A stretch of 64,000 nucleotides of DNA, from NCBI GenBank assembly GCA_964016885.1, contig OZ024754.1, positions 2,542,001 to 2,606,000 of the forward strand, given 5' to 3'. Under the pieces are notes generated by a model. The model made no database searches, was not told where the DNA came from, and saw nothing but the letters and a program-made list of their open reading frames with translations. Source of the DNA: Eledone cirrhosa (taxonomy: Eukaryota). Position numbers and translations under genes: made by a program. Below are positions 2,994 through 59,122 of the stretch, in pieces; position 1 is the first letter of the stretch, and each line of letters begins with the position of its first letter.

Positions 2994-3215
2994 ATTTCAA
3001 GGGTACCAAAAAACTTTGGTTCGCTTTCAATATATATGTTGGTACCCTTGAAATGTAGGAACCCTTGAAATATATATAACAGAATAAATATGGTTTTATA
3101 AATATAGTTTCCATTTATTTAATATCATTGAATATTTACTCCATATATATCTGTCGAGTGCTCTGAATCAGTTATAAACATTTATATTTGTTGGATTTCC
3201 AATTTCCAACAAATT
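2994..3215 (+). mobile_element. Truncated copy of the 11759-12032 pLTR family with short 5' inversion
   Basis: GAAAtatataTAacagaataaatatggttttataaatatagtttccatttatttaatat...tgtcgagtgct...atcagttataaa matches 11883-11990. There is a 16-bp inverted repeat at 2994-3009 / 3039-3054. Confidence 0.7.
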
Positions 3216-3231
3216 AAATATCCCTTCTACT

Positions 3232-3286
3232 TATACTCTTTTACCTGTTTCAGCCATCCGGCTGAAGCCATGCTGGGGCACCGCCC
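3232..3286 (-). mobile_element. ~55-bp retroposon 3' end (second copy 4026-4080; decayed plus-strand copy ~5520-5570)
   Basis: tactcttttacctgtt(t/c)cagccatccggctga(a/g)gccatgctggggcaccgc occurs twice, each abutting (TA)n. Confidence 0.7.
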
Positions 3287-4371
3287 ATATATATATATGT
3301 ATATAGATTTGATATATATATGCAGTTATATATATATATATATATATATATATAATATTTTTTTAGATATAAGAATATCTATCTATACACACACACACAC
3401 ACATACATACATACATACATACATACATATATATATATATATATATATATATATATATATATATATATATATATATATATATATATATATATATATATAT
3501 ATCCATATGTATATGTATATACGCTGAGCGCGAGTGAAATACATAGAGAGAGGGGGGGGGTCTTCCAATGGTGGCGTCTGCATGAAGAATATGTAGTCAA
3601 GTGCGACCGTAATTGAGATGGGGAGCCGAATATGATATTTAATTAATCTAAATATCTATCCACCTATCTATCAGTTCCACCTTGCACATAGAAACACACA
3701 CATACTCTCACATACACACACATATATATACATATATACACATATATATATACATATATATAAGTGTGGTGATCTGTCGCAGGCCCTCCTTCTCTCTCTA
3801 TCTCTCTCTATCCCTCTCAATTATTTCTATATTTCCAGATGGTTCATTTGCAGACTTTTGGGATATCCATGTAAGAAAATCGTGTCTCTCACAAATATAT
3901 TATCAACTACCCACTGACATCAACACACACACACACACACACACACATACATACACACACACATATATATATATATATATATATATATATATATATACAT
4001 AAAAATATATATATATATATTTTCTCTTTTACTCTTTTACCTGTTCCAGCCATCCGGCTGAGGCCATGCTGGGGCACCGCATATATATATATATGCGGTG
4101 TATATATATATATATATATACACAAACGCTCGCGCGCTCATACTTATACACATCTCGCACGCATCCATACACACAGACCCATACACATACACATACCTAT
4201 TTACATCTCACATGCATCCACACACACACACGCGTACACATACACATAGACATACTCACACACACACATAACCATATTCACATGCATCCACATACAGTGT
4301 CAAACATATACTCAAAAAGAAACGAACCATAAGAACACAACAGTAAAGACATAATACTAGAATAGGTTAAT

Positions 4372-4561
4372 GGAGTTATTGCTGTATGATTTAGGAGTTC
4401 GATCAGTAACCTCGTGGTTGCAGGTTCAGTCACAGTGCTGTCCCTTCGACAGGTGTTTTATTCCCCCCTTTTTTTAGTTTCCTTTTTCTTACTAATGCCT
4501 CGTGTTGACCAATGCCTTTTGAGTAAAATTTGGTGGACAGCAACTGCAGAAGACTGTCGTA
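4372..4561 (+). mobile_element. Degenerate tRNA-SINE of another octopus-type family
   Basis: ggttcagtcacag B-box remnant and tail gaccaatgccttttgagtaaaatttggtggacagcaactgcagaagactgtcgta resemble a recalled octopus SINE. Confidence 0.5.
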
Positions 4562-4648
4562 TACATATATACATATATATATATATATATATATATATAT
4601 ATATATATATAATATAAGATCAAAAGATGGTTAAAAGAGTTCCAAGTC

Positions 4649-4716
4649 TTTTATTATGCGCATTTCAAAAACAAATATCATCATGGCTGATATCTGCGTT
4701 CTCATCAGATAAAATA
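4649..4716 (-). ncRNA. Type I hammerhead motif (mirror copy in left arm)
   Basis: The reverse complement reads tattttat-CTGATGA-gaacgcagatatca...tgatatttgttttt-GAAA-tgcgca-TA-ataaaa. Confidence 0.75.
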
Positions 4717-4839
4717 GGGAGACATGATATGAAGCTTAAAAAACACTTGTGAATAGCGAAGTTTTAAATCAACATATGATACGTTGATTTAAAACTTCGC
4801 TATTCACAAGTGTTTTTTATGCTTCATATCATGTCTCCC

Positions 4840-4910
4840 TATTTTATCTGATGAGAACACAGATATCATCCCATGATGATATTTGTTTTTGAAATGCGCA
4901 TAATAAAATA
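4840..4910 (+). ncRNA. Type I hammerhead ribozyme motif
   Basis: tattttat-CTGATGA-[stem II gaacacagatatca...tgatatttgttttt]-GAAA-tgcgca-TA-ataaaata. Stem I has 8 perfect bp, helix III is palindromic, and stem II closes with G-U. Confidence 0.8.
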
Positions 4911-56800: not shown

Positions 56801-57094
56801 GTGTATAGCTATATATATATATATATAGCTATACATATATATATATATATATATATATATATATTTATATAGCTATACATATATATATATATATATATAT
56901 ATATATATATATATATATATATATATATACATATATAGCTAGCTAGCTAGCTAGATAGATAGATAGATAGATTGATTATATATATATATTCATATATATT
57001 AAGTGATAAGTTTCAGAGAGCCGGTACTATACAGTAAAAATATATAAAACACATTAGATATAAAATAAAACAAAACAAAATATTACGTTTATTG

Positions 57095-57130
57095 AGTAGT
57101 GACGCGCGTTTCGCTATTGATCAGCTCAAG
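57095..57130 (-). ncRNA. Partial hammerhead motif (5' core lost)
   Basis: The minus strand reads TGA-gct(gatcaat)agc-GAAA-cgcgcg-TC. This has the classic PLE palindromic helix III but lacks CUGA. Confidence 0.4.
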
Positions 57131-57198
57131 GTTCGAACTGTATCAATCTATCACACTCTGCTTAGTTCTTACTTAGTTCTTATATATATATATATATT

Positions 57199-57243
57199 GG
57201 TGCATTATGGTCCACCTGGTACCTTGCTACACGTCCTTCGTTA
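57199..57243 (+). mobile_element. 3' tail fragment of the 32449 family
   Basis: ggtgcattatggtccacctggtaccttgctacacgtccttcgtta compared with 32596-32640. Confidence 0.65.
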
Positions 57244-58074
57244 TATACATACATTACACACACGCACACACACATATATATATATATATATATATATATA
57301 TATATATATATATATATATATATATATATATATATATATACAGAGAGAGAGAGAGAGAGAGAGAGAGAGAGAGAGAGAGAGAGAGAGAGAGAGAGAGAGA
57401 TCTTTAAAAGGCGGGGGTATAAGACTCACTCTTGGAGTCGAAACTAGCCAGCGGAATTTGACTAGTTTTAATTTTCTTTATTTTTTCTTCTTGCTCTGCT
57501 GCGCTCATAATAACTGGATCCGACCAATGAAAATGTAATATCAATTTGTTGAGATTAATTCGCATCCCAAAGCAATTTTATGGAAAATAATTCAATTTTA
57601 TCTACTTTATACGATAATTCTAATTCATAGAAAACCTATTAAGGCGTGATAAACACTGATTGATACGCTAGTGCTGAGGGTTGGGGCTTTTTACAGAAGG
57701 GAGACGTGTTGAGTTGTAGAGGGTAGGGAAGATTTGTGCTCACAAATTGCGTTGGAAAGTTCAATACTTGGTGTATGCATGAGAGGAATAAAAAATAATT
57801 ATTGAACAATGACAAACAGTTTTATATAGTAATATAATATTGAACTAAGAACAAACAGAATTTGGAGTGAGATTCGTAGAATAGGCAATGGTGCATATGA
57901 CGGTGATGATGATGTTGGTGGTGGCGTTGGTGGTGATCATGGTGATGAAGGTGATGGTGTTTCTATTGATGATATTAGTAACGATGATGATGATGATGAT
58001 GATGATGATGATGATGATGGGGAGGATAGTAACATAAAGAATCGCAACTATATGCCACAAATCTGCTCTCTGAC

Positions 58075-58260
58075 GCTCTACCGATATTTCCCAGCTATCG
58101 GATAGGAGAAATAATAAGTTCTTTCTACCATTGGCAGAAGGCCAGGAATTTGGGGAAGAGGAAGGGGAAAGTCGATAATATCGACCCCATTACTTAACTG
58201 GTACTGTATTATATCAACCCTGGAGAGATAGATAGAGGGCAAAGTTGGGGACCTCGCTGG
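58075..58260 (-). mobile_element. Degenerate SINE A long variant
   Basis: ggggaaagtcgataatatcgacccc...ctggtact. Similar decayed copies lie near 37650-37800, 40900-41070, 43800-44000, 49300-49440 and 54000-54100. Confidence 0.6.
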
Positions 58261-58946
58261 AACAAAAACTGCAAAGCAATTGTCAGACTCACAAAACATT
58301 CTACCAATCTACCGACTTAAATAATACTAATAACAGTATTATTATTATTAGTAGTAGTAGTAGTAGTAGTAGTAGTAGTAGTAGTAGTAGTAGTAGTAGT
58401 AGTAGTAGTAGTAATAGTGGTTGTGGTGGAGGTAGTAGTAGTAGTAGTAGTAGTAGTAGTAGTAGTAGTAGTAGTAGTAGTAGTAGTAGTAGTAGTAGTA
58501 GGGAGAAACAACTGCATGGTATTATAGTATGATTATGAATAAGCATTAAAGAGCGGTATATATATATATATATAGTATATCTATATCTATATCTATATAT
58601 ATATATATATATATATATATATATATATATATATATATATATATATATATATATATATATTATAGATAGATAGATAGATAGATATACTGTATATATATAT
58701 ATATATAGATATAGATATACTGTATATATATATATAGAGAGAGAGAGAGATATATATATATACTATATATATATATATATATAGATATACTATATATATA
58801 TATATATATATACATATATATATACTGTATATATATATATATATATACATAGATATAGTGTATATATATATATATATATACATATATATATACTGTATAT
58901 ATATATATATACATAGATATAGTGTATATATATATATAAGCTTATC

Positions 58947-59122
58947 CCGGGTTCAATCGGAGTAACCACAGTATGCAAGGTACTCAATACATAGCAAAGT
59001 ATAAATATTTAATATAGAAATGGCATCTACAGGACTAGAACTGTTTCATTCGGGAGAAATCATCAGGAAGCTCCAGAATGAAACTGTTCTAGTCTTGTAG
59101 AAGCCATTTCTATATTAAATAT
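58947..59122 (-). mobile_element. pLTR-like element with ~50-bp inverted duplication (59005-59056 / 59071-59122) and hammerhead core
   Basis: The minus strand reads CTGATGA-tttctcccgaat-GAAA-cagt-TC at 59038-59066. A second, non-inverted copy lies at 36021-36131. Confidence 0.65.

Follow-up and report, generated by a model that had tools for sequence, protein, structure and literature searches.

Short hammerhead inserts in the Eledone cirrhosa genome as probable terminal copies of Hydra-clade Penelope-like elements ending before paired leader hairpins

A 64,000-nucleotide stretch of the Eledone cirrhosa genome (assembly GCA_964016885.1, contig OZ024754.1, positions 2,542,001 to 2,606,000 of the forward strand; referred to here as the window and numbered from its first letter) contains short inserts with type I hammerhead ribozymes, which were sorted into families A to H. 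Most of them (A to D, G, H and likely F) are probably short copies of the pseudo-long terminal repeat (pLTR) of Penelope-like elements (PLEs), made by the reverse transcriptase (RT)-endonuclease (EN) at two leader hairpins. What this adds is a conserved RNA element at both 3' ends, together with genomic counts that point to separate priming of two cDNAs and to a run-off origin of the short copies. In the published work consulted, the formation of PLE tails and inverted ends is described as an open question.

The window itself encodes no PLE protein, and the original prediction of inserts without an open reading frame (ORF) held for the window pieces. It did not hold for longer copies of A, B, C, D and G, which extend upstream into an ORF for RT with a C-terminal GIY-YIG domain. 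The untranslated region between pLTR and ORF was about 1.1-1.5 kb, or about 2 kb in D. The ORF was present in loci L061-L064 for A (with a 579-codon open frame in L064), L126-L128 for B, L129 and L130 for C and L414-L433 for G, and as remnants upstream in L134 for D; those of A, C, D and G were identified by tblastn. Open frames of 738-761 codons were found in many B copies, L396 carried an intact one of 737 aa, and family B is evidently young, with intact ORFs. The ORFs of the five families were about 40-57% identical. Hence, the inserts can no longer be called sequence-unrelated, since five families share a clade and related ORFs and six share the tail hairpin described below.

The modelled B protein (pLDDT 80) matched RTs in its first half (Z 7-7.7) and, at residues 349-451, the I-TevI GIY-YIG domain (Z 9.5, rmsd 2.1, 88 residues), and Foldseek gave only weak RT matches (best E 2.7e-3). 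The Pfam search of the element proteins gave no family, 9 homologs giving weak unrelated matches, and a PDB sequence search with the element protein gave no match. The RT motifs were RIRWRA and SDKTN in B, RLRWRT and SDKTG in G, and RLRWRA and SEKTN in a decayed copy of C; they were not seen in A and D, whose available sequence covers the protein without its N-terminus. A CxCX5C linker was found in A (CNCPVRTKC), B (CNCRDRSKC) and G (CNCPDRSIC), the same three families carried CxxC and CxH near the EN end (CDLC/CNLC, CKH/LHK), and CCHH was absent. The motifs RW(K/R), DKT, CxCX5C, CxxC and CxH, with no CCHH, are diagnostic of the Hydra clade (Craig 2021, PMC8557442). By these motifs, the hammerhead and (TA)n insertion, A, B, C, D and G are assigned to the Hydra-clade PLEs, and they are new families within an already published clade. 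A first guess of Neptune or Nematis was discarded, the motifs fitting the Hydra diagnostics instead. The PLE link, the (TA)n targeting and the inverted 5' pLTRs had been rightly foreseen, but they were already in print: (TA)n targets and hammerheads for the Hydra clade, one Octopus family with another ribozyme among them, and inverted 5' copies and tails for PLEs (PMC8557442). Since Hydra-type ORF fragments (25-68% identity to B) occurred in 8 of 39 evenly placed 10-kb stretches sampled from the genome (L189-L227), the clade appears to be a large, diverse genome component whose proteins Pfam misses. Head-to-tail tandems were also observed, for family G in L433 (G000:C1:377710500-377720499; period about 3537 bp, with three pLTR ends and a terminus at the site called Y below) and for family B (C7:78454703-78463084).

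Copies of these families terminate at two alternative 3' sites, X and Y. The leader order is hammerhead, X, a first stem-loop (SL1), Y, a second stem-loop (SL2) and the ATG. The distances of X and Y from the ribozyme core were 105 and 186 in A, 106 and 185-189 in B, 107 and 196 in C, about 66 and 127 in F, and 103 and 182 in G; copies of D ended almost only at 95. A (TA)4 was found within 30 nt after 359 of 410 X or Y ends. X lay 0-6 nt before SL1 (ACTC...GAGTRC) in A, B, C, F and G, with TA microhomology blurring the exact base, and Y lay 4-9 nt before SL2 (GCTC...GAGCRC), followed by the ATG, in full-length leaders of B, C and G. SL1 was also present in one tailed D copy, and the tail hairpin is common to six families. 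One family B sample, obtained by a tail-only search that skipped common words, is biased. No ORF was found upstream of the longest F copies examined, SL1 and the X/Y pattern were present, and the F inserts are likely Hydra-clade pLTR copies as well. Family E had one 3' end and no SL1. Upstream in L455, one of three long E copies, the decayed frames ADKGG and LDITSLYT, which we take to be of the canonical PLE type, do not match the Hydra DKT motif, and E looks like a decayed canonical PLE rather than a Hydra element.

Both hairpins follow the consensus RCUC...YY-GAGYRC, a bulged stem-loop found twice between ribozyme and ATG. It was tested in 78 related marine-metagenome loci, of which 48 had a hammerhead and 28 a long ORF with 170 nt upstream. 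The hairpin was present in 22 of these 28 leaders (two in 13, one in 9, none in 6), compared with 16 of 886 control windows that had the hairpin and 2 of 886 that had two copies. The CTC/GAG core was imposed by the search pattern, leaving the bulge, the first upper pair and the upper stem free. The bulge was TT, TC or TA in 34 of 35 marine hairpins, the first free upper pair was Watson-Crick in 32 of 35 (C-G in 21, T-A in 11), and the upper stem had 2.4 pairs, compared with 0.59 when shuffled. Among hairpins of this genome 26 of 29 had A-T as the outer pair, and among those from elsewhere 47 of 50 had G-C, a compensatory change; this count uses the best parse, which inflates upper-stem counts, and the marine-leader comparison is the controlled one. 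Since MAFFT misaligned several hairpins, anchored hairpin counts were used. When 5' and 3' pLTRs were compared in 11 marine rows, the 3' copy stopped 2-4 nt before SL1 (L336, L351, L372) or SL2 (L337) in the 4 informative ones, the other 7 running into contig ends, indels or tandem copies. In published sequences, both hairpins stand at the beginning of Hydra-1_Ajap, and a single one precedes the end of Hydra-2_Amil. No description of the hairpin pair, the X+Y rule or the fixed 5' ends was found in the literature searched, which excluded Repbase, Dfam and subscription papers.

The same hairpins could be read as DNA, with the GIY-YIG domain recognising them in a cDNA or integration intermediate and cutting upstream, so that X and Y would be resolution cuts. 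The X sites are TA-rich, as the target is, the tail has been attributed to EN-mediated resolution (Craig 2021, PMC8557442), and the EN of D. virilis Penelope required a tail for recognition (cited in PMC11167929). We nevertheless regard this reading as unlikely. The hairpin sits outside the copied part, 3' of it, its G-T pairs and fixed 2-nt bulge indicate a single-stranded structure, and solo X-ended and solo Y-ended copies are both common; in PAc (Anolis Poseidon), moreover, the start sites in vitro coincide with the tail ends (PMC11167929). Loading of the RT on the RNA hairpins therefore remains our preferred interpretation of X and Y.

The head-to-head fold-backs link the two sites. Among 125 pairs, 99 were X+Y, 6 Y+Y, 4 X+X (all in D) and 16 unclassifiable, so that X+Y made up 99 of 109 classifiable pairs, in a set where the direct arms of A, B and F had been chosen for ending at Y; in family G, which was unselected, X+Y was found in 21 of 21 pairs. 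The X arm reached more than 10 nt further 5' in 29 pairs and the Y arm in 13, and in 57 the two were level within 10 nt. Since a single cDNA that copies itself cannot account for both X-longer and Y-longer pairs, we infer two separate priming events. Arms of the same insertion diverged by 0.015-0.034 and arms of different insertions by 0.056-0.098 (0.064 versus 0.075 in F).

The 5' ends were clustered at family-specific positions. Among unselected copies, 56 of 84 in G started at +39 to +49, 7 of 14 in A at -68, 22 of 30 in F at -6 to +1 and 3 of 6 in D at -73. A cluster at -68 was forecast beforehand for C, and starts between -77 and -63 were seen in 6 of 30 copies, compared with 0 of 33 lying no more than 6 nt from -87, where the earlier query had begun. 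The hotspot sequences were TC|ATAT in A and D, TC|ACTG in B and TC|ATTT in G. The RNA polymerase II initiator consensus resembles these TC|A hotspots. TCACT has been termed initiator-like (PMC3846280), and Penelope carries an internal promoter with initiator and downstream promoter elements (PMC2377424). A splice-acceptor reading of the hotspots was rejected, as A, B and D lack an AG at this point and the AG of G lies downstream of many copy starts. The hotspots could also be RT pause or microhomology sites unrelated to an RNA 5' end, with fold-backs arising by cDNA self-priming, as already proposed (PMC3846280). The ATAT-like or palindromic hotspots of A and D and the greater likeness of same-insertion arms would fit, yet we consider this very improbable: self-priming on a Y-ended cDNA could not carry the copy beyond its template at the 5' end, as the X arm goes in 29 of 99 pairs, the hotspots of B, C and G show no homology to TA, and the starts in G have a sharp edge at TC|ATTT, only 4 of 84 copies passing the core in the upstream direction. 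The TC|A starts, taken with the mixing of short and long copies described next, suggest instead that the short copies are run-off cDNAs from the mRNA 5' end.

Short and long copies were compared in trees of A, B, C and D, which were based on 156-186 columns with little support and omitted copies with intermediate 5' ends. The short/long label was not clustered (changes of 11 versus 10.4 in A, 11 versus 11.4 in B, 5 versus 4.8 in C and 5 versus 5.6 in D). The B set included 12 short and 9 long copies that were identical, and no variant in it was private to short copies. About half of the short copies ended at Y though they lack SL2, and a short copy, carrying at most SL1, could not itself yield Y-ended offspring. 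Short and long copies of A, B and C are intermixed in these trees, and for these three families the separate non-autonomous lineages of the original prediction are not supported. The rival account, in which the short inserts are SINE-like (short interspersed element) or retrozyme-like non-autonomous families amplified in trans from short masters, would draw on the fixed 5' ends, the lack of an ORF linked to F, the grouping of D short copies noted below and the occurrence of a true non-coding hammerhead array elsewhere in the genome (L227). With the unclustered labels, the identical B copies and the Y ends of copies missing SL2 set against it, we judge it quite unlikely.

Under the preferred reading, the RT-endonuclease would bind its own mRNA at the pair of bulged 5'-leader hairpins and begin reverse transcription immediately upstream of each one. 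Within a (TA)n tract, the GIY-YIG domain would nick the two strands, TA-like microhomology would let one RT start at X and the other at Y, and joining of the two cDNA 3' ends would give a head-to-head fold-back. On a linear transcript from the internal initiator, the cDNAs would run off after 100-300 nt and leave mini-elements. A template formed by tandem read-through or circularised by the ribozyme would let them proceed across the ORF and leave long partial tandems. A more tentative extension to the whole clade, to which we give somewhat less than even weight, is that the twin RNA hairpin serves as an RT loading signal, one per target strand, and that integration consists of two target-primed reverse transcription reactions by a dimer, which would explain both the tail and the head-to-head repeat. 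With the signals confined to the 5' leader, copying of the ORF would in that case require tandem or ribozyme-circularised RNA, and linear mRNA would give strong-stop-like mini-copies.

Several observations weigh against these proposals, beside the selection of direct arms mentioned above. Family D is nearly all X-ended, all 4 of its pairs join two X ends, and its short copies lie nearest to one another, nearer than to the 6 long copies sampled; 6 further pairs are Y+Y. The hairpin pattern is absent from 6 of 28 foreign leaders, and the folding of isolated tails is only moderately better than that of shuffled sequence (z -1.1 and -2.2). The F hotspot lies at stem I and is not TC|A, and unselected B shows its hotspot weakly (2 of 23 at -90). 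Full-length B copies have unclustered 5' ends (25 values from -1232 to +150, one spurious and one near -91), with 1 of 25 at the initiator, and these copies fit the model only if another template was used. Of 147 host-facing 5' junctions, 66 faced (TA)n, compared with a 9% background, and 77 lay outside any microsatellite; insertion into pre-existing (TA)n is therefore likely but not clean.

If the model is true, mini-copy by-products would have seeded about 10^5 hammerheads in the genome. The twin hairpin would be a small, mutable RNA element open to compensatory-pair testing, for which family B supplies young intact ORFs, and it suggests a compact cis-signal for (TA)n-targeted insertion as well as a diagnostic motif for a clade missed by Pfam.

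The hammerheads themselves were searched with a strict type I descriptor in the window and in 100 global and 100 local dinucleotide shuffles. Eight complete cores were present, at 4848(+), 4708(-), 11845(+), 11671(-), 14171(+), 13447(-), 10089(-) and 59066(-), and partial copies at 3067, 14384, 20267, 32507 (both strands), 36131, 53859, 57197 and 59071. The strict descriptor was passed by 4 window cores, compared with means of 0.05 (global) and 0.01 (local) per shuffle. Complete cores thus stand where the inserts had first been placed, and the earlier figure of about 11 motifs is fair or low. Each of A to F is multi-copy; the first-look genome candidates, which are not copy numbers, were 1725 for A (4608), 1239 for B (11571), 2182 for C (14081), 27 for D (13351), 2989 for E (10058) and 3169 for F (58947). 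The seventh family, G (32452), had escaped notice and is frequent in the genome. The 39 sampled stretches held 45 strict motifs, compared with 0 in 20 shuffles, and 15 of the 45 were inside one tandem array. The 30 non-array motifs in 380 kb (Poisson range 20-43) extrapolate to about 79 per Mb, or about 2.4 x 10^5 per 3.0-Gb genome. The expected (TA)n enrichment was borne out, with (TA)6 within 250 nt downstream of 41 of the 45 motifs (27 of 30 without the array) against a 20% background. A palindromic helix III (TGCGCA, TATATA) was confirmed in A to D and was absent from F, which has a normal 3-bp stem III, and from E, which has CG. Stem II is bulged in B, and the single mismatches of the window copies of E and F were absent from the other E and F copies shown. 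In full G copies the core is a U3-A8 variant (TTGAGAA), and the G hotspot falls inside stem II. Such a core was previously described (PMC4209133), and U3-A8 cores (TTGAGAA, TTGATAA, TTGAAAA) were seen in several Hydra-type elements (G full copies in L165 and L411-L433; L204, L353, L387). The ribozyme folds appear plausible. Stem covariation within families, an earlier proposed check, was weak, F being 90.4% paired versus 88.1% when shuffled, with one compensated pair. An Rfam scan of the window yielded, among the best 150 of 429 matches, only microsatellite and hairpin matches, and 5 loci gave no match at the gathering score. A CTGATGA motif at 45799(-), within 45700-45830, had no matching ribozyme fold.

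No copy began or ended within 2 nt of the ribozyme cut site (0 of 444, with a filter under which F copies having their 3' end at the cut, as well as very short 3' products, would go unseen), which matches the behaviour of PAc. Since no copy begins or ends at the cut, as in PAc, a role for the ribozyme can only be inferred; processing or circularization of the RNA by the hammerhead is likely, and it is the least supported step of the model.

Head-to-head arrangements, as originally predicted, were present at A, B, F and G. In family A, the inverted arm (4604..4776, minus strand; core 4708) ends at X with no tail, and the direct arm (4780..5034, plus; core 4848, helix III TGCGCA) starts at the 5' hotspot and ends at Y, followed by (AT)n, with SL1 (ACTCC...GGAGTGC) at 4953..4979 on the plus strand. 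In family B, the inverted arm (11565..11761, minus; core 11671) ends at X, and the direct arm (11755..12034, plus; core 11845) starts at TC|ACTG and ends at Y, with SL1 at 11951..11972 (plus). The inverted arm of G (32449..32507, minus), with the ribozyme 3' half, ends at X, and its direct arm (32507..32640, plus) starts inside stem II at the family hotspot and ends at Y. One F arm (58942..59071, minus; core 59066, one stem I mismatch) ends at Y and the opposite arm (59071..59127, plus), without the CUGAUGA strand, ends at X. The short D copy (13352..13520, minus; core 13447) starts at the family hotspot and ends at X. The short C copy (14084..14266, plus; core 14171) stops in (TA)n some 12 nt short of X, and it is abutted in one (TA)n by a further Hydra-type, ribozyme-less tail piece (13880-14046; SL1 at 13948..13978, plus, 7-bp upper stem). 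Different families are often stacked in one tract in this way, as also in L025 and L180. A family H piece (3067..3191, plus), 85% to B, comprises the ribozyme 3' half and tail with SL1 at 3138-3161, and an ORF-linked relative is in L199. The family E copy (9973..10145, minus) has a minimal hammerhead at 10089, one 3' end and no SL motif. Smaller pieces include G-type fragments at 14349..14384 and 20225..20267 (both minus), a G-type tail end at 57197..57243 (plus), an F-type copy (90%) at 36022..36131 (minus) and a decayed E-type copy (76%) at 53735..53859 (minus). The window is very rich in microsatellites. It also contains two SINE-like copies with a tRNA-like head at 26420-26890, placed tail to tail with (TA)n between, a geometry opposite to the PLE fold-backs, a SINE-like piece at 31600-31765, a 188-bp two-copy tandem of a dispersed repeat at 6916-7278 and a 72-bp, 7.8-copy tandem at 17268-17830.

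Published solitary type I hammerheads ascribed to truncated PLEs share with the inserts a palindromic helix III, an unpaired 5' base in their long helix II, pairs on opposite strands and the U3-A8 core variant. They number thousands per genome, unlike the extrapolated 2.4 x 10^5 here, and F and G differ in having a full stem III. Non-LTR retrozymes, reportedly treated by Cervera and de la Pena in 2020, offer another comparison. Like them, the inserts are small non-coding hammerhead units from PLE pLTRs (Li et al. 2026, preprint 10.64898/2026.07.22.740005). Unlike the head-to-tail tandem retrozymes, the window inserts are solo or head-to-head and intermixed with autonomous copies. A head-to-tail non-coding tandem, the retrozyme arrangement, was seen in the L227 array only (G000:C28:110000001-110010000; unit about 420 bp, 15 hammerheads, helix III CTAG, internal (TA)n per unit), the unit of which is dispersed in L204 and L207.

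PAc nicks and extends both strands in vitro and needs RNA 3' of the start (Frangieh 2024, PMC11167929). As in the model proposed here, two internal RT start sites bound its tail and the hammerhead is dispensable for in vitro insertion, and in PAc, as in these families, no ends fall at the ribozyme cut site (RNA ends in the case of PAc). PAc differs from the Hydra families in belonging to another clade and in having start sites inside the ORF, in an AC-rich stem-loop; in the available portion of that work no conserved binding element is defined and the inverted arms are left unexplained (PMC11167929). The closest relatives are the Hydra-clade elements (Hydra-1_Obim, Hydra-1_Ajap, Penelope-n_HM; PMC8557442), which likewise have a single ORF with RT and C-terminal GIY-YIG, a pLTR type I hammerhead, (TA)n targets, inverted 5' copies and an optional tail. 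The ribozyme listed for Hydra-1_Obim differs from that of every family here, and whereas published Hydra-clade elements are generally under 3 kb with tails of 30-40, the units here are 3.5-3.9 kb with tails of 60-90 nt.

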